Part shown: positions 9,600 through 55,860 of the stretch, one piece after another
Layout: each line of letters starts with the position of its first letter
Position numbering within the stretch: the first letter of the stretch is position 1
DNA from: Deltaproteobacteria bacterium
Lineage (GTDB): Bacteria > Myxococcota_A > Polyangia > HGW-17
Direction of reading: 5' to 3'
Assembly: GCA_016937155.1 (NCBI GenBank)
Contig: JAFGWM010000032.1
Location: forward strand, 107,422 to 171,421
Length of the DNA: 64,000 bases
The notes under the pieces: model-generated
The model's input: the letters and a program-made list of their open reading frames with translations, nothing else
The model's database searches: none
Told to the model about the DNA's origin: nothing
Position numbers and translations under genes: made by a program

Positions 9600-9642
9600 T
9601 TCCATTTATATTACAAATCCACAAAAATGAGGAAGTTATCTT

Positions 9643-10821
9643 ATGAAGAACCATGAATTTATTTCCCCCCTAAAATTGAAACCAACGGTTAAGACAGCAC
9701 TTGAAGAAAAGCTTGTGTATGCAGGAAAAGGTGTAAAATCTGTTGAAATTATTCCGGAAGAAAATTCCCGACCGCTTATCAGATTCAGTTGCGATGAATT
9801 TTCTGATGAAGAATCAATTCAGATTGAAATGGAAAAAATGATCAGAGGTTTTTCAAGGGGTTTTCTCGAGGTGGAAAAGGAAATTCTTTTCGATCAAAGA
9901 GAAAGACAGGTTCCGGGCAAAACTGATGTTTATGATGAAATGATCAGCAGGGGATGGGTTCATGAATATGAGACCGGCAGAGTTTCTCTTGATGACAAAG
10001 CAGCAGATCTGTATAACTTTTTCGATGCTGAGTTTGTCAAAATAGCCGATGGCTATGGAGCCAGACCCATTCAGTTTCCAACGCTGATAAGTATGGAAAC
10101 TCTTCGTAAAGCTGATTATTTTGCGAGTTTTCCTCATCACATAACACTGGCTACACATCTTATTGAGGATGCCGAAAAAATTACTGAATTCAGTAAAAGA
10201 TATTCTGATGAAGGTGATATGGATTTATCTGAAGTTACTGAGAAAACAGAGCATGTCTGTTCTCCGGCAGTGTGTTTTCATCTGTATCAGGCACTTGAAG
10301 GAGAAAAACTTGATGGTGTCGTCAGAAGAACAGCCATCGGACCATGTTTCAGGTATGAAAGCTCCAATATGAAAACTCTGGAAAGGTTGTGGGATTTTCA
10401 TATGAGAGAGATAATTTTTGTTGGTCCCTCATCAGAAGTGGATGAGCTTAGAAAGACTGCTATGAAACCTGTGATGGAACTGGTGGACAGGATCGGAATG
10501 AAATCTCATATTGAAACTGCCAGTGATCCGTTTTTTGTAAATAATTACAGTGGACAGACTTTTTATCAACTGAGCCATAAAACAAAATATGAACTGAGGT
10601 TGCACCTTCCGTTCAGAGAAGATCACTCTCTGGCAGCAGCTTCATTTAACTGGCATCAGACCTTTTTTGGAAACAGATTTTCCATAAGTGCCGGTGGAGA
10701 AGAAAGCGGAACCGCATGTGTAGCTTTTGGTGTTGAAAGATGGGTTTATGCATTTCTGGTTCAATTTGGAATGGATCCCGCCTATTGGCCTCAGTATGTC
10801 TTGGATAATATTCCGCGGTAA
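9643..10821 (+). CDS. SerRS-family class II aminoacyl-tRNA-synthetase-like catalytic domain without the N-terminal tRNA-binding coiled-coil arm. This is an amino-acid--carrier-protein-ligase-like paralog with a roughly 110-aa non-coiled-coil N-terminal domain.
   Basis: Class II motif-2-like ..RRTAIGPCFRYESSNMKTLERLWDFHMREIIFVG.. and motif-3-like ..GTACVAFGVERWVYAFLVQFG.. Candidate Cys/Glu/Cys zinc ligands (VCSPAVCF, PCFRYE, TACVAF), as in methanogen-type SerRS and aa:CP ligases. GGAAG RBS upstream. Confidence 0.55.
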   Translation: MKNHEFISPLKLKPTVKTALEEKLVYAGKGVKSVEIIPEENSRPLIRFSCDEFSDEESIQIEMEKMIRGFSRGFLEVEKEILFDQRERQVPGKTDVYDEMISRGWVHEYETGRVSLDDKAADLYNFFDAEFVKIADGYGARPIQFPTLISMETLRKADYFASFPHHITLATHLIEDAEKITEFSKRYSDEGDMDLSEVTEKTEHVCSPAVCFHLYQALEGEKLDGVVRRTAIGPCFRYESSNMKTLERLWDFHMREIIFVGPSSEVDELRKTAMKPVMELVDRIGMKSHIETASDPFFVNNYSGQTFYQLSHKTKYELRLHLPFREDHSLAAASFNWHQTFFGNRFSISAGGEESGTACVAFGVERWVYAFLVQFGMDPAYWPQYVLDNIPR

Positions 10822-10860: not shown

Positions 10861-11040
10861 TCAGTTATCCTCCTTCCAGATTTTAACCGTTGCATCAATT
10901 TTATCCTTGAAGTTCAATCCCTTTGTCACCATGTTCATAACGGTGGGATGACTTATTAACTTCATTACCCTTGGATCATTTACAACTCTTAAAGCTGCTG
11001 TTAAAAACTTTGATTTTACTTGTGAAAAATCCATATCCAT
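10861..11040 (-). CDS. Small hypothetical protein (59 aa), just under the 60-aa ORF-track cutoff.
   Basis: Reverse-strand ORF ATG..TGA translating MDMDFSQVKSKFLTAALRVVNDPRVMKLISHPTVMNMVTKGLNFKDKIDATVKIWKEDN. AGGAG sits 6 nt upstream of the ATG. It occupies an otherwise empty 400-bp gap. Confidence 0.4.
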   Translation of the reverse strand: MDMDFSQVKSKFLTAALRVVNDPRVMKLISHPTVMNMVTKGLNFKDKIDATVKIWKEDN

Positions 11041-11225: not shown

Positions 11226-11870
11226 ATGGGTATTATCAGTTGGTTTTGTGCGTTATCAACTGTTCAGATTTATTTTCACCGGGGAGGTGATGTTTTGTTT
11301 GGCTGGAATAAAAAAGACAAATCAAGAGAGTTTGAGGAGTTGGCTATACCTGTTATGGACAGTCTTTATGGTACTGCTCTGAAGCTTACAAGAGATTCTG
11401 ATTCTGCTCAGGATCTTGTTCAGGATGCTTATCTGAAAGCTTTTAAATATTTTGATACCTTTGAAACAGGAACAAACTTTAAAGCATGGATGTTCCGAAT
11501 AATGACCCGGGTTTTTTATGATGCCTATAGAGAGAAAAAAAGGCGTGATTCCATGTATTTTCCTATAGATGAGGAAAGGCCTGTACGAGGATATGAGGAG
11601 GATGAAACTTCAGGAGAACGGAAAGTTTTTCTTGGAGAACTGGAAAAAATTATTGATGAACTTCCCCCTGATTTTAAACTTCCGGTGATATTGAGTGACA
11701 TTCATGAGTTCAGTTATCAGGAAATCGCGGATATCATAGGATGTCCGGTGGGTACAGTTATGAGCAGACTTTATAGAGGCAGAAAAAGACTGCGAGAGAT
11801 CCTTACAGAATCTGCTGGTGAAATAAATTCTGATATGGGTAAAGTTATTTCCCTTGGGAGCGTAAAATGA
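11226..11870 (+). CDS. ECF (sigma-70 family group IV) RNA polymerase sigma factor. A TTG at 11295 preceded by GGAGG is an alternative start.
   Basis: Region 2 ..AQDLVQDAYLKAFKYFDTFETGTNFKAWMFRIMTRVFYDAYR.. and region 4 ..FSYQEIADIIGCPVGTVMSRLYRGRKRLRE.. The ATGA at 11867-11870 overlaps the downstream anti-sigma gene by 4 bp. Confidence 0.85.
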   Translation: MGIISWFCALSTVQIYFHRGGDVLFGWNKKDKSREFEELAIPVMDSLYGTALKLTRDSDSAQDLVQDAYLKAFKYFDTFETGTNFKAWMFRIMTRVFYDAYREKKRRDSMYFPIDEERPVRGYEEDETSGERKVFLGELEKIIDELPPDFKLPVILSDIHEFSYQEIADIIGCPVGTVMSRLYRGRKRLREILTESAGEINSDMGKVISLGSVK

Positions 11871-12766
11871 ATTGCAGAGAAGCTGAAAAATTGATTGGTC
11901 TTTATCTGGATAATGAGTTTTCAGATGCTGACAGAATTGAAATTGATGAGCATATTTCCAGTTGTTCCAGATGCAAGTCTATTATGGAAGAGGAAACTCA
12001 GTTAAAACAGGCAATTTCTTCAATAAAACTGGAACGGGCTCCAGCAGCACTCAGATCCAGAATTCTTAGATCTCTGGAAGGCCAGAAAAGAAAAATCTGG
12101 GCTTTTACAGGTTTAAAACTAGCCGCATCTCTTGGGGTGGTTGTGTTTTCAATCATTGGGGTTTATTCACTTATCAAACCATCCATATCCAGAGATGAGA
12201 AGATATGTACCTCAACTAAAAATGATTCATTTGTTCTCGCTCAGGCATCTATGGAGAATGATACTATCCGAAGTAACAAGTTTTCCCCCAAATACAGGAA
12301 ATTAAGAAAAAGGGTTATTAATCCGAGACTTATGGAAAATCTTGTTGTCGAACACGTAAGACCTGGTCCGGTTGAAAAAAGAAGTGAGGATCCTGATCAA
12401 CTGGCAGAATGGTATCGTGGAAAAACAGGTCTTTATACTCCTCCTCCGAAATTTGCATCATGGGGAGGTGGCATGGTGGGAGGAAGACTCAGTCAGTTTG
12501 CGGGAAATGATGCCATAAAGTTGATTTATTCAATTCATGGAAGAAGAGTCACTCTTTTTATGTTCAACCCCAGAATGATGCCTGGCATTACAGAGATTAA
12601 ATCGCCTGGTATTATTACCAAACTCGATCTTGATGAAATACTTACTGAAACTCCTGGTGGAAGAACAGTTGCTGTCTTTTCTCATAATGGCACCGGATAT
12701 TCCCTTATTTCTGATCAGGAAAAAGATGTGATAGTTTCCCTCATAAAGTCCATTGCTTCCAAATAG
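11867..12766 (+). CDS. Zinc-binding (ZAS-type) transmembrane anti-sigma factor (299 aa).
   Basis: N-terminal H-x3-C-x2-C motif (IDEHISSCSRCKS) 25-35 aa from the start, one TM helix (IWAFTGLKLAASLGVVVFSIIGVYSLI) and an extracytoplasmic C-terminal domain. Translationally coupled to the ECF sigma gene. Confidence 0.7.
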   Translation: MNCREAEKLIGLYLDNEFSDADRIEIDEHISSCSRCKSIMEEETQLKQAISSIKLERAPAALRSRILRSLEGQKRKIWAFTGLKLAASLGVVVFSIIGVYSLIKPSISRDEKICTSTKNDSFVLAQASMENDTIRSNKFSPKYRKLRKRVINPRLMENLVVEHVRPGPVEKRSEDPDQLAEWYRGKTGLYTPPPKFASWGGGMVGGRLSQFAGNDAIKLIYSIHGRRVTLFMFNPRMMPGITEIKSPGIITKLDLDEILTETPGGRTVAVFSHNGTGYSLISDQEKDVIVSLIKSIASK

Positions 12767-15042: not shown

Positions 15043-17454
15043 ATGTCTGTAAGAATAACACCACTGATTTTGACTTTGTTACTGATTTTCAACGGGTGTG
15101 ATGATAGTTCTTCATCAAACAACTCGTTCAATAACAGCAATAATGGAACCAATAATATTGCGATAAATAACCATACAAATCCTCACTGTACTGAGGTTAC
15201 AAATACGCAGTGTAATCCCCTGCTGGATGATGATGGTGACTCAATATCCAATGGTCATGAAGGCTGTGAGTGTTCTCTTGATACAGATAATGATGGAGTT
15301 GCAGATTACCTTGATCAGGATAGTGACAATGATGGAGTTCCTGATGTTATTGAATCTGGTGATGGTGATATCAATACCGATCCTGTGGATACAGATGGTG
15401 ATGGAACACCGGATTATCTTGATCGCGACAGTGATAATGATGGAGTAATTGATGGTGAGGAAGATCGTAACGGTGACGGTAAACTGGGGGAATGTGAAGA
15501 TAACCCTCTGGTTTGCAGTGGAACCTGTGCAGATCCGGAATCTGTATGTCATGAGGAAAAAGGAATTTGCATCAATGCACAATGCCTTCAAGGTGAGACA
15601 GATCCTCATATTCAGGATACAGATGCTGATGGTATTCTGGATGGAATGGAAAGTACGTTTATCTGTAATACTGGCAGTGAAACAACAGGTGGACGCAAGT
15701 TGGTATCTTATAAAAAACATTCTTTGAACCTCTTCCAGATTGCAACAGAACTTGATAGTACCTTTACTGAAATGAATCCTTCAAATGCCGCCGGGATAGA
15801 AGGTGCTGCCGGTTTTGATCTCACTGATGCAGAAAATGCTTTTGCCGGTTTTGTTGTTTCCAGAGAACCTTCAGACAGTAATATTTATCTGGAAGTTCAG
15901 GATATAATTACAGCTCTTGGAACACTGGGTACAGTCCGTTCTATTGCTACTGGAAATGTGAATTACAGTCATACAGGTCTTGAGCAGGTGGTAAATGTTA
16001 TTGTCAGTCTTGAAATAAGTCCTGCTTCCAATCAGGGTATTCTTCGAAACAGGATAATAGCACTGCTTTTAGGAAGAGATCTTTCTGAATTTCCAAATAC
16101 AATAAATAGCCCCTTTGGAACCGACAGTACCAATAACATTATTTCATTCATGGTTCAGCGTACAAATTCAAGCCAGAGTGTTGTCATGGGTGGTGTTGCA
16201 TCCAGGTCAGACTGGGAGTCCAGAGACAATGTCAATTTCCATCTTGCTGACAGTGCTGGGGGAATGTGTCTAGCCTCTTCTTCTGATACTGTTGAAAATG
16301 AATGTGAACAGTATCTGGCGGAAGAAGCAACTGTTGATATTGTTTGGGTTATTGATGCCAGTGGTTCGATGAGTGATAATCAGTCAAAGCTTTCTTCAGC
16401 TTCCAATACATTTCTTACAGTTGCTTCACAGTATAATCTCCACTGGAGAATGTGTGTTGTTGATATGACTGAGGGAAATCCAGGAGACTGCTGCACTGGA
16501 ACTAATGAAACTGGAAACAGATGGCTTAGTAGTGGTGTGTCAGGTGATGATGAAAGATTCAGAGAGTGTCTGATGGATCCGGCTGGGTCAAACAGCAGCG
16601 ACGGTGGAATTGAAATGGGACTCTCGCAAATGCAGGATGCTGTGCAGAGTCACATGCCTCCAACACAGGATAGTGATGTTTATTACAGACCATCGGCTGC
16701 AAGAACAGTGGTTTTCATGTCCGATGAAAATGCAAATGAAGTTGATCAGCATGATATGTGTCCCGATACTCCGGGAGCTTCTGATTGCCACTATTTCTCC
16801 GGTTGTTTTGAAAGTGACATGATGGGTTGTATGAATGTTCTTACTGATACTGCAACTATGCTCCAGTGTCAGGGTTATTCCGATATGTGGAATCACAGTG
16901 AATGTGATGAAGTATACTACTGCATGGGTGCCACAAATGATGAAGCATGGGATCCTGTTGTATGTGATCCTCTTGTAAATCCTTATATACAGTTTGCTCA
17001 GGATAATGAACTTATAGCTTATGGTCTTCATGTTCTGCAGACTGATGACAATGATGCATGCAGCGATAATCCCGAAGATTCCAGTGGCTTTTCACCGCCA
17101 TATGGTTATCAGCAGGTTATTAATGCCACAGGAGGAATTCTGTCTTCACTTTGTCAGAATGATCTTACAACTACTATGCAGCTTATGATTGAAGATATGG
17201 CTGGAGCAGCAAGTCCTATTATTCTTCAGCACAGACCTATTCCTATTTCTTTGGCTGTGGCAATAGAAAGAAAGAATGCTGCTGATCCTCTTGATACCAG
17301 TTATGATGCTATTCCACGTTCGAGATCAAATGGTTTTGACTATAAGGCTTCTTCAAACAGGATAGTTCTGGTTTCACAACCGATGGATTATCCTCCATAT
17401 GAAGTGGTGGTAAGCTATACAAGATGGGTTACCTCCTACGCTCCACCAGACTAG
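15043..17454 (+). CDS. Secreted lipoprotein (803 aa) with thrombospondin-type-3-like Ca-binding Asp repeats, a Cys-rich region and a von Willebrand factor A domain.
   Basis: Signal peptide plus lipobox (LLLIFNGC). Repeated DxDxDGxxDxxD units ([25 protein letters not shown]...[26 protein letters not shown]). A MIDAS-like [17 protein letters not shown]. Many Cys residues. Confidence 0.7.
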
Positions 17455-26187: not shown

Positions 26188-27975
26188 CTATATTTCCTCA
26201 TCCTCTTCAGATAAAGACCAGATTTCCTCCTGTAGTCCATTTTTCATGCTTGTCCTGAATAATTCTTCTATTTCCCTATGATTTTTCATATTGAGGGCTT
26301 TGAGTGCAAGTTCCTCAAGCTCGGATATTGCAACTGAACGGATAAGCTTTTTTATATGAGGAATGAATGCCGGCGGCATTGAAAAAATTCGCAATCCAAA
26401 CCCCAGAAGAATTAGAACACCTATTGGTATTGTTGCCATATCACCGCATATACTGACATCAATTCCAGCTTTTTTACCCTCAGTTATGCAAAAGTGTATC
26501 ATTCTCAAAACCCCAGGATGAAGAGGTCTGTATAAATATGCGATATTATCATTGGCTCTATCAACTGCCAGCGAATACTGAATAAGATCATTACTTCCTA
26601 TTGAAAAGAAGTCAGCTTCTTTGGCCAGAATATCACTAATCATGCAACTGGAAGGAAGCTCCATCATTGTTCCGATTTCAATATTATCCGGTACTTCATG
26701 ACCTTCTGCAGTGAGCTCTTCACTGCATTCCCAAAACACATCCTTTGCTTCACTAAGTTCATCCAAACATGAAATCAGTGGAAACATGATCTTAAGAGGA
26801 ATATCAGGAAAATTGCAGTGAGCTCTCAGAATGCCCCGAATCTGAGATTTAAGTAATTTCCGCGATTTCAACGCAAGCCTGATAGATCTCAAGCCCAGTG
26901 CCGGATTTGCCTCCTGAGAAAAACTGCCTTCAATGGGAAATTTATCCCCCCCCAGATCAAACGTTCTTATGGTAACAGGACCGGATTTCCACCCTGAAAA
27001 AAGGTTTATAGTGTCTGAGTAATGAAGTTCCTCACTGAATGAGTCCTTTTGATTGGAAAGAAAGAGGAATTCCGTCCTATATAGTCCGATGCCTTCCGCC
27101 CCATGAGAGAGTGCTTTGGCTGATTCTTCTGAAAAATCAATATTTGCGTATATTGAAATCGGTATTCCATCAGTTGTTTCAGCTTTAGTATGACTTTCAC
27201 TTATAAGGGTTTGTTCTATGGCGTAAATACGCTGCATGTTTTTACGATGCTGTTTTACACGCATGACATCAGGATTGATAATTACCTCTCCAGTGTTTCC
27301 GTTCACCAGAATAAGATCACCATTTTTCACGGTGTCCAGAATACCCTTTGCACTGACCACCGTAGGTATTTCAAAAGCCTTTGCGATGATTACAGTATGT
27401 GAGGTTGATCCGCCGTGTTCTGTGACTATTGAGGAAATCGCATTTCTTCCAAGTTGAATAGTTTCAACCGGACTTAATTCACTGGCTACAACGATAGCAT
27501 CAACCGGAGGATTAAAACTCTGGCAATCCTGTCCCGACATGTTTCGTAAAAGTCGATAAGTTATAAATCGAAGATCATTCAGCCGTTCATTAAGATATTC
27601 GTTTTCTTCTCTGAGAAAGATTTGCTCCCACTTTTCCAGAATTCTATCAATAGCCCATTCCGCGTTAATCAATTCTGATTTGATGGTTTTGGTGACATCT
27701 TTTCTTAGTTCATCATCCTTGAGCATCATCCGGTGAGCTTCAAGAATATGTCCTGGATCTCTATATTCCTCTCCTATCCTGTCTCTCACCTGATCTATCT
27801 GCTGAGCACTTTTCTCAACTGCTATATTAAATCTTTGAATTTCCAGTGGAACTTCTGTTTCATCAATGGCACGTTTTGTTACAGATATATCTTTTTGCTG
27901 CACAATGTAGGCTCTTCCAATGGACAAGCCCGGGACAACACCTTTGCCTGAGATGAAAATATTCTGTTCACTCAT
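26188..27975 (-). CDS. ptsI: Phosphoenolpyruvate--protein phosphotransferase (PTS Enzyme I).
   Basis: Phosphohistidine region ..GGSTSHTVIIAKAFEIPTVVSAKG.. and the C-terminal PEP-utilising domain (..IGSNDLIQYSLAVDR..). Starts 4 bp inside the ptsH stop. Confidence 0.9.
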   Translation of the reverse strand: MSEQNIFISGKGVVPGLSIGRAYIVQQKDISVTKRAIDETEVPLEIQRFNIAVEKSAQQIDQVRDRIGEEYRDPGHILEAHRMMLKDDELRKDVTKTIKSELINAEWAIDRILEKWEQIFLREENEYLNERLNDLRFITYRLLRNMSGQDCQSFNPPVDAIVVASELSPVETIQLGRNAISSIVTEHGGSTSHTVIIAKAFEIPTVVSAKGILDTVKNGDLILVNGNTGEVIINPDVMRVKQHRKNMQRIYAIEQTLISESHTKAETTDGIPISIYANIDFSEESAKALSHGAEGIGLYRTEFLFLSNQKDSFSEELHYSDTINLFSGWKSGPVTIRTFDLGGDKFPIEGSFSQEANPALGLRSIRLALKSRKLLKSQIRGILRAHCNFPDIPLKIMFPLISCLDELSEAKDVFWECSEELTAEGHEVPDNIEIGTMMELPSSCMISDILAKEADFFSIGSNDLIQYSLAVDRANDNIAYLYRPLHPGVLRMIHFCITEGKKAGIDVSICGDMATIPIGVLILLGFGLRIFSMPPAFIPHIKKLIRSVAISELEELALKALNMKNHREIEELFRTSMKNGLQEEIWSLSEEDEEI

Positions 27976-28283
27976 TTTTTTGGAACCTGCTCATCAAATC
28001 CGGTCTCAATAAGTTCTGAAAGTTCATCGACAGCCTGTTGTGAATCAATACCTGTGGCCCTTATTATGAGTCGGCATCCTTTATATGCAAGCAGTCCCAA
28101 AAGTCCCATGATACTTTTTCCGTTTGCAACGTAGTCATTGAAAATAATTTCAATTTCACTTTCAAATTTACTGCTTTTTTCAACAAACATCTTGGCAGGT
28201 CTGGTATGCAGACCCTGCTCATTGATTAACTCCACTTCTTTTTTATGAGTTTTAGGCAACTTAAATCTCCATTTAGTTATCAA
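27972..28283 (-). CDS. ptsH: Phosphocarrier protein HPr. The TTG at 28283 is doubtful; a better start is the TTG at 28259, which has a GGAG upstream.
   Basis: Active-site His in ..GLHTRPAKMF.. and regulatory Ser in ..GKSIMGLLGL.. Confidence 0.85.
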   Translation of the reverse strand: MITKWRFKLPKTHKKEVELINEQGLHTRPAKMFVEKSSKFESEIEIIFNDYVANGKSIMGLLGLLAYKGCRLIIRATGIDSQQAVDELSELIETGFDEQVPKK

Positions 28284-29128
28284 TATGTTCTTATATCACG
28301 GTGCTGTACCGTAATTTTATAGCCAAGTTTTCTTAGAGTTAAAGCTGATTTTTCAACTATATAAACACTTCTGTGTTTACCTCCTGTACAGCCTATACTG
28401 CAGGTAAGATAGCTCTTTCCTTCTTTCTCATAAAGAGGAATGAGATATTTAAGAAAATCCTCAAATCTGCTATAAAATTCCCGGAATTCATCTTTATTTT
28501 CAAGATAAGTCTGAATCTTATGGTCAACCCCTGTATATTCTCTCAATTCAGAAACGAAATATGGATTGGGAAGAAATCTCACATCCAGAAGAATATCACT
28601 TTCCATGGGAACTCCTCTGGAAAAACCGAAAGACATCAGTTTTATCATCAGACGTGGTTTTTCATAGTTACTGAATATGCCGAAAATTTTACTTCTTAAT
28701 TCATGGACAGTCAGATCAGATGTATCAATCACAGTTGAAACATCATCACGGAGTGTGTTAAGTAAGTTTATTTCATTTTCAATTGTTGAAATCAGTGTAT
28801 CTCCACCAAGAGGGTGAGGTCTTCTGGATGCCTTGAATCTGTTAAGAAGAATTTCATTATCAGCTTCAAGAAAAAGAATTTCCACAGTATGATTTTTTTT
28901 ATTAAGAGTTTCTTTTACTTCTGACCAGTGATCAAGAAAATCAGCATTTCTGATATCGATAGCAATGGCGACTTTGTCAAAATGACCTTTTTCATCCATT
29001 AGTTTAACAAAACCGTCAGTCAAAGGGACGGGTAAATTATCCACAGCAAAAAATCCGAGATCCTCCAGAGAATGCAATACGACAGTTTTACCTGCTCCGC
29101 TGAGTCCTGTTACTATAACAAGTTTCAT
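28280..29128 (-). CDS. rapZ: RNase adapter protein RapZ (YvcJ/YhbJ-family P-loop protein).
   Basis: MKLVIVTGLSGAGKTVVLHSLEDLGFFAVDNLP.. Walker A, and a C-terminal ..GCTGGKHRSV.. motif. Conserved position between hprK and ptsH. Confidence 0.85.
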   Translation of the reverse strand: MKLVIVTGLSGAGKTVVLHSLEDLGFFAVDNLPVPLTDGFVKLMDEKGHFDKVAIAIDIRNADFLDHWSEVKETLNKKNHTVEILFLEADNEILLNRFKASRRPHPLGGDTLISTIENEINLLNTLRDDVSTVIDTSDLTVHELRSKIFGIFSNYEKPRLMIKLMSFGFSRGVPMESDILLDVRFLPNPYFVSELREYTGVDHKIQTYLENKDEFREFYSRFEDFLKYLIPLYEKEGKSYLTCSIGCTGGKHRSVYIVEKSALTLRKLGYKITVQHRDIRTY

Positions 29129-29131
29129 GAT

Positions 29132-30100
29132 TTATTCGACATCCTCTTCAATGATCATCTCACTGCACTGGTTATGAAGCGCCTGATTGAGTTTATTCTG
29201 GAATAATTCAAAACTGTTTATCCCTCTTTGTTTGAGCAACTGATCCCTTGCTGCCACCTCAATAATTGTACCAAGAGATCTTCCTGGTCTGACTGGTAGT
29301 ATAACCAGTGGAAGTGTAATACCAAGAATTTCTTCCGAATGATCATCATTTCCCAGCCTGTCATACTCTTTATGACCATCCCATTCTTCAAGCTGAATTA
29401 CAATTTCAATTTTTTTCTTGTCTCTTACACTTGCAGGTCCGAAAAGATCAGGAATGTTAATTATCCCCAGTCCTCTGATTTCCATATGATGTTTTATTAC
29501 CGGAATACCTCTTCCGTCAAGAACATCAGGGTGATGCTTAAGTATTTCAACAGTGTCATCTGCAACAAGTCGGTGTCCCCGGGTTATAAGTTCCAGAGCC
29601 GCCTCACTTTTTCCAATACCGCTGGGACCTGTCAGAAGTACTCCTATTCCGAGGACTTCCACAAGTACACCATGAATTCTGGTTATTTCTCTGGTGTGTT
29701 CATCAATGAAAAGATCAAGATTATCAAGGAAATCTCCTGTTCTCAGACCTGATGAAAGAACAGGAATATTGTTATCTCTCGCCATTTTCAGAAGTATTTC
29801 AGGTACTCCCTGATTTTTTGTGACAATTATACATGCTGGTTCAGTTTCCACCAGAAGCCTGCAGGCACTTTCCAGTAGAGCATTATTCAGATTTTCAAGA
29901 TATGAAATTTCAGTGAATCCAAGGATAACAATACCATTTTGGTATTTATCCTTAACATCAACACCTGTAAGCATCAGGCCAGCTTTAAAATATCTTGAAG
30001 AGGAGAGATCCTGCCATAAACCTTCTGAGCCCTCAAGAAGACAAATTTTCAGTGATTCACTTCCATGATCAAGTAGTTCTTTGACTGTTAATCTGCTCAT
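29132..30100 (-). CDS. hprK: HPr kinase/phosphorylase.
   Basis: ..HGVLVEVLGIGVLLTGPSGIGKSEAALELITRGHRLVADDTVE.. Walker A and the HprK signature. First gene of the hprK-rapZ-ptsH-ptsI operon. Confidence 0.9.
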   Translation of the reverse strand: MSRLTVKELLDHGSESLKICLLEGSEGLWQDLSSSRYFKAGLMLTGVDVKDKYQNGIVILGFTEISYLENLNNALLESACRLLVETEPACIIVTKNQGVPEILLKMARDNNIPVLSSGLRTGDFLDNLDLFIDEHTREITRIHGVLVEVLGIGVLLTGPSGIGKSEAALELITRGHRLVADDTVEILKHHPDVLDGRGIPVIKHHMEIRGLGIINIPDLFGPASVRDKKKIEIVIQLEEWDGHKEYDRLGNDDHSEEILGITLPLVILPVRPGRSLGTIIEVAARDQLLKQRGINSFELFQNKLNQALHNQCSEMIIEEDVE

Positions 30101-55160: not shown

Positions 55161-55416
55161 TCTTCTTAATCCCATCCAATTTACCATTTCTGCTAATCCA
55201 ATAATCTTTAATTAGGGTTTTTTCAACCGACGGATTTTTGTTTCAAAAAAAGATCTGTATTGTCGATTTATTCTAAAATGTAAAAAGATGGCAGGAGAAA
55301 TCATTCATAAAGGGTGATTCAAAAAAATTTTTTTCTAAAAAAAGTTAATACTTGCAAATTATCCGGTGATGTTGGATACCACACAGTATCAGATGGCGTA
55401 CCGTCCGGAGATTAGA

Positions 55417-55860
55417 ATGAACCTGAAAAAGATTTTAAAGAAATCAAATATATGTATTGACCTGAAAAGTACGGACAAGAAGTCTGTGATCAGTGAGATG
55501 CTGGATATTATTATCAGCAATGGAATAGTGAAGGATCCTGAGGGTGCACTTAAAGCTCTTTATGAACGTGAAGAAAAAATGTCCACCGGTATGGAAATGG
55601 GTATTGCGATTCCTCACGCTAGAACTGATGCTGTATCAGAGCTTCAGATAGCTGTTGGAATCAGTAGAAAAGGTGTAGATTTTGAAGCTCTGGACGGGGA
55701 ACCATCAAGGATAATAATTATGACATTGTCTCCTACCGCCAGAAGTGGTCCCCATATTCAGTTCATTGCTGCAATCAGCAACATTCTTTCAGATTTTAAC
55801 AAAAGAGAAGGTCTGATTAAGGCAGCGACTGTTGAGGAAGCATTAAAAATTCTCATTTGA
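55417..55860 (+). CDS. ptsN: PTS EIIA of the fructose/nitrogen type (PtsN-like). Start corrected to the internal ATG.
   Basis: MNLKKILKKSNICIDL.. and the active-site His in ..GIAIPHARTD.. Length about 148 aa. Confidence 0.75.
   Translation: MNLKKILKKSNICIDLKSTDKKSVISEMLDIIISNGIVKDPEGALKALYEREEKMSTGMEMGIAIPHARTDAVSELQIAVGISRKGVDFEALDGEPSRIIIMTLSPTARSGPHIQFIAAISNILSDFNKREGLIKAATVEEALKILI

Follow-up and report, generated by a model that had tools for sequence, protein, structure and literature searches.

Bacterial-type SerRS binds the long variable arm of tRNA-Ser through an N-terminal coiled-coil arm. What might a SerRS-like protein do that has no such arm, and no carrier protein gene beside it? 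The gene raising this question lies in a 64-kb stretch of DNA that was analysed as a whole (the window), and its product corresponds to JXR95_05770, a MAG protein at NCBI from a 'Deltaproteobacteria bacterium' that is annotated as hypothetical (100% match). The original prediction had read it as a class II catalytic core of the SerRS lineage with candidate Cys/Glu/Cys zinc ligands of the methanogen type, resembling the enzymes that load amino acids onto carrier proteins. Such aa:[carrier protein] ligases (Bll0957, Bll6282 and Atu2573) were reportedly described by Mocibob et al. in 2010 and 2013. These enzymes attach Gly or Ala as a thioester to the Ppant arm of carrier proteins whose genes share their operon (PMC5370406, PMC9437257).

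The assignment of the product to the class II aaRS is far beyond chance. It matches the Pfam domain tRNA-synt_2b above the gathering score (E 7.9e-8), the NCBIfam model for aa:[ACP] ligases, NF005479 (E 3.7e-41), and that for methanogen-type SerRS, NF002120 (E 3.9e-36). The best match in a search of PDB sequences was Bradyrhizobium Bll0957 (3mey, E 4e-30), and the SerRS of M. kandleri (3w3s) was also found (E 7e-25). Bll0957 and methanogen SerRS structures were again retrieved when the AF2 model of the product (pLDDT 86.5, pTM 0.86) was submitted to Foldseek, with E-values from 5e-24, for the top match, a methanogen-type SerRS, to 1e-21; the TM-score normalised to Bll0957 was 0.79. The product therefore has the class II core of the methanogen-type SerRS lineage and is closest to the aa:carrier-protein ligases, so that profile searches and structure prediction both bear out what had been read from the sequence. 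The match to NF005479, at 141.1 bits, nevertheless falls far below the curated equivalog cut-off of 357, and those to the methanogen-type SerRS models NF002120 and TIGR00415 (124.7 and 106.3 bits) are far under their cut-offs of 611 and 489.55.

Table 1. Features of the ligase-like gene, its product and its surroundings (positions in the window).
Feature	Position	Strand	Remarks
rpoD, 693 aa	7518..9599	+	Context; directly upstream of the ligase gene
Shine-Dalgarno-like GAGGAAG	9629..9635	+	7 nt upstream of the ATG
aa:carrier-protein-ligase-like SerRS paralog	9643..10821	+	Complete ORF, ATG start, 392 aa + stop
Family-specific N-terminal domain, residues 1-87	9643..9903	+	Predicted ferredoxin-like fold (AF2)
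Class II aaRS catalytic core, residues 88-392	9904..10818	+	Homolog of the aa:CP ligases and of the methanogen-type SerRS catalytic domain
Pro146, putative motif 1 proline (IQFPTLIS)	10078..10080	+	Invariant in 25 members
Cys211, candidate first zinc ligand (SPAVCF)	10273..10275	+	Aligns with Cys of SPAACY in Bll0957; invariant in 25 members
Motif 2, residues 234-259, PCFRYESSNMKTLERLWDFHMREIIF	10342..10419	+	Includes Arg237 and candidate second zinc ligand Glu239; aligned to CFRRE of Bll0957
Motif 3, residues 356-367, GTACVAFGVERW	10708..10743	+	Includes candidate third zinc ligand Cys359 and Arg366; aligned to TGCVAFGMDR of Bll0957
59-aa ORF	10861..11040	-	Convergent with the ligase gene; conserved; no Pfam match
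ECF sigma factor (214 aa) and zf-HC2 anti-sigma factor (299 aa)	11226..12766	+	Context

Residues 88-388 of the product align with positions 14-313 of the 318 in NF005479, while the alignment to Bll0957 covers residues 139-388 and that to 3w3s residues 84-390. Two of the peptides quoted in the original prediction map to motifs 2 and 3, and the other to residues 29-53. The segments SPAVC211F, FRYE239S and TAC359VAFG match SPAACY, FRRE and TGCVAFG of Bll0957 column for column, and the Bll0957 residues aligned with Cys211, Glu239 and Cys359 are presumably the zinc ligands of its published structure. Pro146 we take to be the motif 1 proline of the class II aaRS. Among 25 diverse family members with 36-74% identity, neither the motif 1-3 residues nor the zinc triad varies; the invariant positions include F236, R237 and E239 in motif 2 and C359, G363, E365 and R366 in motif 3. 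The alignment and the invariance are consistent with the zinc ligands first proposed, and the best explanation of these sequence features is that the enzyme would be catalytically intact and of the zinc-dependent adenylating type. The core, motifs 1-3 and the Cys/Glu/Cys site are shared with the aa:CP ligases, which like the product have no tRNA-binding domain. The same zinc triad and a homologous catalytic domain are found in methanogen-type SerRS (M. barkeri, 2cim, and M. kandleri, 3w3s), but the product lacks their N-terminal tRNA-binding domain of about 170 aa (PF18490) and is some 120-150 aa shorter.

A search for homologs detected 723 at E <= 0.001, those listed being about 390 aa long. 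They come from Myxococcota and Anaerolineales, and their names are absent or "SerRS"; the family is misnamed, some databases calling its members 'seryl-tRNA synthetase' and others 'hypothetical'. In a rough NJ tree the family lies beside Bll0957, with 31-35% identity in the core, and SerRS forms the outgroup at 24-26%. The best explanation is that these proteins are a hitherto undescribed family, sister to the amino acid:[carrier protein] ligases. The window gene leads to a sister family that is large, unannotated and marked by an N-terminal domain of its own.

That domain sets the product apart from the single-domain aa:CP ligases of about 318 aa. A non-coiled-coil domain of roughly 110 aa had been proposed at the N-terminus; such a domain is present, but it spans about 87 aa, because residues 88-388 already align to the NF005479 model. 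Nor is it unique to this protein, as had been thought, since it is conserved across the family. In the AF2 model its elements are beta1 (residues 2-7), alpha1 (14-26), beta2 (31-37), beta3 (45-50), alpha2 (56-71) and beta4 (81-85). As predicted, the tRNA-binding arm is missing: unlike bacterial-type SerRS, with its antiparallel coiled coil, the model has no long helical hairpin and the product has no Pfam match to Seryl_tRNA_N. The isolated domain had no match among PDB sequences and only generic weak ones in Foldseek (E >= 0.01). Searched against 1.84 billion representatives it gave 125 matches, found only in the ligase family. Twelve of these sequences were read, chosen from roughly 80 that were less than full length together with those in which the domain lay at an odd position. 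They proved to be family fragments or, once (P0137), a frameshifted read-through from the upstream carrier gene, and the remaining short matches all carry the domain at the N-terminus; no other architecture was seen. The suggestion that the domain might be a fused acceptor was rejected. Its predicted fold, beta-alpha-beta-beta-alpha-beta, differs from the four-helix bundle expected of a carrier protein, neither a Ser nor a Cys is conserved in it, and a separate PP-binding carrier is encoded next door in relatives that share the domain. A role in specificity or docking is possible. The 87-aa domain, with its predicted ferredoxin-like fold, is a hallmark of the family; it is not a tRNA-binding arm and not a fused acceptor either.

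In most of the family, as with the characterised ligases, a PP-binding carrier is encoded beside the enzyme. In 67 of 80 species-level genome loci the PP-binding carrier gene ends at or overlaps the start of the ligase gene; two further Chloroflexota loci (L073 and L077) were left unassessed, the contig ending about 135 nt before the ligase gene or truncating its 5' end. All Anaerolineales-type loci with enough upstream DNA have a PP-binding gene of about 80 aa directly upstream, and these loci sit inside NeuB/CMP-sugar (nonulosonic-acid) clusters. In clade B a divergent 85-aa carrier protein (PP-binding, E 0.003) is encoded two genes upstream of the ligase. Among the nearest outgroups of the clade to which the window gene belongs, one has an overlapping 84-aa PP-binding gene (P0016), another has two PP-binding genes (P0020) and a third an ACPS phosphopantetheinyl transferase directly downstream (P0024). 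In some Myxococcota the ligase is found in phospholipid-head-group clusters with a PPTase and a membrane protein that is possibly DltB-like. A membrane protein adjoins the ligase/carrier pair in two distant relatives (L094 and L095), where the sole PDB matches to a membrane protein were DltB, though these were weak and not significant (E 0.14-0.16, from a two-sequence profile). These contexts suggest physiological roles for the family that can be tested.

The Myxococcota clade of the window gene, clade C, is the only part of the family without a nearby carrier protein or PPTase linkage, unlike nearly all of its relatives. That no obvious ACP lies nearby held throughout the window: a carrier-protein HMM run against all six frames gave a best E-value of 2.2, and no carrier was found there with the clade A HMM, a broad HMM, a PROSITE-like regex or Pfam searches of the large and mid-sized ORFs. 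The window also yielded no PPTase or carrier-using enzyme, no other serS and no DltB-like membrane protein of the L094/L095 type. Within 7-8 kb on either side of about 12 clade C loci no carrier, PPTase or carrier-using enzyme was found, and no neighbouring gene family was common to clade C and the carrier-linked clades. When the family carrier profile was run against 5.8 billion proteins in a word-seeded search, the contigs of clade C ligases were absent among the matches listed. Clade C, a conserved orphan, is the natural place to ask whether such an enzyme uses a distal or general carrier, or a different acceptor.

It would seem most likely, on balance, that the enzyme adenylates a small amino acid and joins it by a thioester bond to a carrier protein whose gene lies elsewhere in the genome. 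In favour of this are the similarity to Bll0957 and methanogen SerRS, the invariant motif and zinc-triad residues, the carrier linkage of relatives and the conservation within clade C; the failure to find a carrier around the clade C genes and the low NF005479 score count against it. A small amino acid would be bound through the Cys211/Glu239/Cys359 site; Gly, Ala or Ser are the candidates suggested by family precedent. The aminoacyl-adenylate would be formed with ATP, using the arginines of motifs 2 and 3, and the aminoacyl group would then pass to the phosphopantetheine thiol of the small carrier protein. The functional analogy is with DltA and DltC, where an adenylating enzyme also loads an amino acid onto a small carrier for envelope modification, although DltA belongs to the ANL superfamily and is not a class II aaRS homolog.

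The main rival to a distal carrier, which we consider possible but distinctly less probable, is that adenylation was kept while the dedicated carrier was lost, the acceptor now being the housekeeping ACP, CoA or another small thiol, or else an amine or hydroxyl group of a metabolite, lipid or protein. Every carrier-linked context has been lost in clade C, whose neighbours are variable and of a housekeeping type (rpoD, dnaK, LigT, an ABC permease), yet the protein is strongly conserved: identity is 66% in the core and 47% in the N-domain, and 145 of its 392 positions do not vary. Characterised aa:CP ligases, moreover, can aminoacylate CoA and cysteine in free form as well when assayed in vitro (PMC5370406). 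The one core substitution fixed in the clade, W337, falls in the conserved active-site strand SFN[W/Y]H, which might hint at a changed acceptor. The clade-specific fixed substitutions, however, number only three (K13, F70 and W337) and none is at a catalytic residue; so small a number speaks against remodelling of the acceptor site. Carrier proteins are also small, and their genes often lie apart from those of the partner enzymes, and the neighbours that are conserved point to no alternative acceptor. A broader version of this proposal is more speculative still. In it the clade C enzyme would be a constitutive aminoacyl-transferase, freed from a dedicated carrier, co-transcribed with rpoD and acting on a new acceptor (a housekeeping ACP, CoA or another thiol, or an envelope lipid or protein), while the family at large would supply aminoacyl-S-carrier for nonulosonic-acid glycans in Anaerolineales and, via DltB-like membrane proteins, for envelope lipids in other Myxococcota. 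If true, the carrier-free transferase would be a new activity for an aaRS paralog, and the aminoacylation of glycans and lipids would be the first physiological roles for aa:CP ligases.

It is much less probable that the protein is a non-catalytic regulatory paralog, comparable to HisZ or SLIMP, which binds an amino acid or a partner and uses an ACT-like N-domain as a possible sensor. The topology of the N-domain is common to ACT-type ligand-binding domains, and in two genomes the gene directly follows rpoD with no terminator between them, which might hint at a regulatory role. The domain, however, matches neither ACT nor any other ligand-binding domain specifically, the linkage to rpoD is missing in most members of the clade, and the arginines of motifs 2 and 3, the zinc triad and the proline of motif 1 are all invariant, as would not be expected in a degenerate regulatory paralog.

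Least probable of all is a minimal tRNA-charging enzyme, SerRS or another aaRS, with the ferredoxin-like domain replacing the tRNA-binding arm: ferredoxin-like and RRM-like folds can bind RNA, ribosomal protein S6 and an RRM are among the weak Foldseek matches of the N-domain, and relatives carry the SerRS name in some source databases, but the N-domain is neutral to acidic (mean net charge -1.6), relatives with the same domain adjoin carrier proteins rather than translation genes, and the family groups with Bll0957, outside SerRS, whose models it matches only far below their cut-offs. The Foldseek alignments of the full model are longer to methanogen SerRS (about 390-436 columns) than to Bll0957 (312), though this is not enough to claim homology of the N-domain. 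That the domain is a relic of the tRNA-binding domain of methanogen SerRS found no support: no SerRS N-terminal domain was matched by Pfam at E <= 1, the core alone being hit, hhalign against the methanogen SerRS N-domain gave a probability of 0.2%, and SerRS was absent from the top 50 Foldseek matches of the isolated domain.

The ligase gene is probably co-transcribed with rpoD, from whose stop codon it is separated by 43 nt with no terminator-like site, and the orthologous rpoD-ligase arrangement occurs in L002 (Sigma70 Pfam domains). The location between rpoD and an ECF sigma module is as first described in the window, but it is not conserved across the clade and so gives no clue to function. 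The 59-aa ORF had been judged not to be a carrier, and nothing carrier-like was found in it; as a partner of the ligase it was rejected, being also missing beside the closest ortholog (L010). Copies with 51-61% identity occur at four other loci (L016, L092, L011 and L017), and the ORF travels with the ECF sigma module. In the high-GC subclade an unrelated, lipoprotein-like ORF of 71 aa takes its place.

The protein encoded by the ligase gene, identical (100%) to a hypothetical protein from an NCBI MAG named 'Deltaproteobacteria bacterium' (P0001), contains a class II core that matches Pfam tRNA-synt_2b above the gathering score (E 7.9e-8). Amongst the NCBIfam models it matches the amino acid--[acyl-carrier-protein] ligase NF005479 (E 3.7e-41, with model positions 14-313 of 318 aligned to residues 88-388) and the methanogen-type SerRS (E 3.9e-36), though the scores of 141 and 125 are far under the respective curated cut-offs of 357 and 611. 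The closest solved relative in a PDB sequence search is the Bradyrhizobium glycine:[carrier protein] ligase Bll0957 (E 4e-30), with the type-2 SerRS of M. kandleri (E 7e-25) and M. barkeri (E 3e-14) also matching. A confident AlphaFold2 model (25 input homologues, pLDDT 86.5, pTM 0.86) ranked 3w3s (E 5e-24) and Bll0957 (E 8e-23; TM 0.79 normalised to Bll0957) first in Foldseek, followed by bacterial and eukaryotic SerRS at ~1e-13. [quoted passage not shown] The Cys/Glu/Cys zinc ligands it proposed also hold up: the strings containing Cys211, Glu239 and Cys359 align with SPAACY, FRRE and TGCVAFG of Bll0957, and the three residues are unchanged in all 25 family members compared. P146 of motif 1, F236-R237 of motif 2 and G363-E365-R366 of motif 3 are invariant in the same 25 and, with both sets of residues conserved, the enzyme looks catalytically intact.

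Homologues numbered 723 in a search of 5.8 billion proteins. The 120 listed are nearly all of 386-419 aa with a query coverage of 93-99%, and come from Myxococcota and, predominantly, Anaerolineales (Chloroflexota); family proteins are named 'hypothetical protein' by NCBI and 'seryl-tRNA synthetase' by JGI. A rough neighbour-joining tree built on the core puts the family beside Bll0957 (31-35% identity) with methanogen SerRS as the outgroup (24-26%). We treat it as a putative sister family of the characterised aa:CP ligases, a topology that is provisional because the method is distance-based and only a fragment of Bll0957 was used. The converse label is found on P0338 from Methanobrevibacter cuticularis: NCBI calls this 530-aa protein 'amino acid--[acyl-carrier-protein] ligase 1', yet it is a complete methanogen-type SerRS that includes the tRNA-binding domain PF18490. 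The name seems to be a mistake in annotation and the reverse of the 'seryl-tRNA synthetase' naming of the window's family.

Gene context was investigated at 80 species-level genome loci, and 15 more obtained through exact-protein look-up, using carrier-protein HMMs made in this analysis. Clade A, whose ligases share 35-42% identity with the window protein, comprises Anaerolineales and a single Acidobacteria MAG. Here a PP-binding carrier gene of ~80 aa with the motif WDSMGH ends at or overlaps the ligase start, as seen at 67 of the 80 genome loci; two Chloroflexota loci, L073 and L077, are not assessable because the contig begins ~135 nt upstream of the ligase or truncates its 5' end. The pair is clustered with CTP_transf_3 (CMP-sugar synthetase type), NeuB, a 508-aa Capsule_synth-like protein, a methyltransferase, GNAT, an Antibiotic_NAT-type acyltransferase, a DUF4910/M28 protein, GT2 and a sulfotransferase. 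This looks like a nonulosonic-acid glycan pathway, from which we infer that the aminoacyl-S-carrier protein may donate its aminoacyl group to a sugar, possibly as a decoration of the glycan. Clade B (P0014 and P0074, 39-42% identical to the window protein) has the gene order 85-aa ORF, divergent 85-aa carrier protein, 262-aa Cys-rich protein, ligase and 184-aa secreted protein. Its carrier reads GYIPSMQL, with PSM replacing DSL, and gives a PP-binding E of 0.003, under threshold. The Cys-rich protein (CWETCDGFCC...) has no Pfam match.

Three outgroups lie closest to clade C: P0016, P0020 and P0024. In P0016 (locus L094) the ligase overlaps an 84-aa PP-binding gene, with a 600-aa membrane protein next in order, and the surrounding genes (LPG_synthase_TM, three or four CDP-alcohol phosphatidyltransferases, a nucleotidyltransferase, methyltransferases) suggest that the cluster may modify a phospholipid head group. 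P0020 is accompanied by two PP-binding genes, an AMP-binding enzyme, asparagine synthase, GNAT and a hexapeptide acyltransferase. P0024 has a gene for an ACPS phosphopantetheinyl transferase immediately downstream and, on the upstream side, a carrier-like ORF of 66 aa and a membrane protein of 374 aa. The 374-aa and 600-aa proteins, which have no Pfam match, are homologous to one another (E 1e-11 to 1e-13). Their only membrane-protein match in the PDB is DltB (MBOAT), and this is weak (E 6-9 with a single sequence, 0.14-0.16 with a two-sequence profile); at the position of its catalytic His motif FWNRWH the L094 and L095 proteins have WWRRYN and YWNRFQ, respectively. One possibility, a lead rather than a result, is an aminoacyl-transfer system resembling Dlt in which the ligase is of aaRS type.

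Clade C consists of the window and ~12 loci from Myxococcota MAGs, 58-75% identical. No carrier protein was found by the HMMs within +-7-8 kb of the ligase at any of these loci, and none of the 115 matches to the family carrier-protein profile in the 5.8-billion-protein collection is on a contig with a clade C ligase. Six-frame scanning of the 64-kb window with a broad carrier HMM (best E 2.2) and a phosphopantetheine-site pattern search found no carrier protein, and Pfam on the large and mid-sized ORFs gave no PPTase, PP-binding protein or further SerRS-like gene; the original remark that no obvious ACP lies near the ligase holds in these searches. Upstream of the ligase are rpoD (window, L002/L010), LigT (L090), an ABC permease (L091) or a 490-aa secreted protein (L004, L011, L019, L092). 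Downstream are the 59-aa ORF and an ECF sigma/anti-sigma pair (window, L004/L017, L011, L016, L092) or, at the remaining loci, other genes, and no neighbour family is common to clade C and the carrier-linked clades. In the window the ligase ORF lies 43 nt from the rpoD stop codon, with no terminator-like site found in the gap; the position 3' of rpoD is probably an operon accident in two genomes and no functional clue. The clade C ligases have a mean core identity of 66%, 145 invariant positions and only three clade-specific fixed substitutions (K13, F70, W337), and as judged from the alignment their catalytic apparatus is unchanged.

The relatives are the best guide to the chemistry of the family. 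A carrier-protein or PPTase linkage is present in every clade but C, and the catalytic apparatus of clade C is unchanged. The most economical reading would be transfer of a small amino acid, for which Gly, Ala and Ser are the precedents (PMC9437257, PMC5370406), to the phosphopantetheine arm of a carrier protein, and on balance we lean towards the window enzyme still doing this with a carrier encoded elsewhere. The main rival is a switch of acceptor in clade C, whether to CoA, a housekeeping ACP or some other thiol, or to a nucleophile that is not a thiol. Characterised aa:CP ligases aminoacylate CoA and cysteine in vitro (PMC5370406), and an altered partnership would fit the fact that all of the context is lost, though we regard such a change as rather doubtful. 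A purely regulatory enzyme, with zinc-ligand and motif residues invariant, would seem very unlikely. The window enzyme is predicted to work like an aa:CP ligase. It differs from the curated family (NF005479) in its score below the cut-off, in an N-domain added to the single-domain architecture and in having no adjacent carrier gene. Neither the N-domain-bearing subfamily nor a physiological role for aa:CP ligases is described in the literature examined; according to a review (PMC9437257) this role 'remains unknown'. Taken alone, the window gene is an orphan; the family around it supplies contexts in which this little-understood class of aaRS paralogues can be tested.

The N-domain, residues 1-87, is the part outside the aa:CP-ligase model, which already covers the protein from residue 88, and is thus shorter than the ~110 aa first estimated. 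Its secondary-structure elements in the full-length model run beta1(2-7)-alpha1(14-26)-beta2(31-37)-beta3(45-50)-alpha2(56-71)-beta4(81-85), a modelled topology that is ferredoxin-like, and the isolated domain (pLDDT 83) has the same elements except beta4. It had been thought unique to this protein, but its profile retrieved 125 from 1.84 billion representative proteins, all with the domain N-terminal in this family or fragments, 12 being examined over their whole length. The sole apparent carrier protein-N-domain fusion among the 12 (P0137) arises from a frameshift, the upstream carrier gene being read through. The profile had no significant match in PDB sequences (best E 0.036), and Foldseek gave weak generic alpha+beta matches (E at least 0.01) to permuted ribosomal protein S6, RNA polymerase subunit L/Rpb11 and HMA and RRM domains. 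The charge is neutral to acidic (mean net -1.6), and no Ser or Cys is conserved. Together the fold, profiles, architecture and residues point to a family-specific domain; a carrier domain is ruled out by the ferredoxin-like fold and lack of a conserved Ser or Cys. When its profile was set against that of the tRNA-binding N-terminal region from eight methanogen SerRS, each carrying PF18490, the probability was 0.2%, and neither this, the PDB profile search nor Foldseek supports tRNA binding by the domain; that the enzyme charges tRNA is extremely unlikely. Our guess is a role in docking or specificity.

Features of the window and of related loci
Feature	Location	Strand	Remarks
Ligase ORF	9643-10821	+	ATG start, 392 aa
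Shine-Dalgarno-like GAGGAAG	7 nt 5' of ligase ATG	+	9629-9635
59-aa ORF (MDMDFSQVKSKFL...VNDPRVMK...)	10861-11040	-	conserved; no Pfam match
803-aa protein	15043-17454	+	N-terminal Asp-rich DxDxDG-type repeat run; no Pfam match
Nitrogen-PTS-like regulatory genes	26188-30100	-	PtsI (Enzyme I), RapZ, HPr kinase, EIIA-2 protein; second stretch 55366-55860 (+)
Multi-pass membrane proteins beside ligase/carrier pairs	L094 5053-6855; L095 5857-6981		mutually homologous
Clade A cluster	L008 1-17182		conserved in ~55 further Anaerolineales loci (L020-L089)
Clade B operon	L006 6605-9816		also L018, L030; all genes 69-77% identical between two MAGs
P0016 lipid-type neighbours	L094 87-3393 and 8716-10756

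Copies of the 59-aa ORF, 51-61% identical, occur at five related MAG loci, always divergent from an ECF sigma/zf-HC2 anti-sigma pair, for which it is a candidate small partner or regulator. Counterparts of the 803-aa protein (802-804 aa) are found downstream of dnaK in L004 and L092, with size and position kept. The G+C content of the genome, ~38%, is low and unusual for a Myxococcota-type genome.
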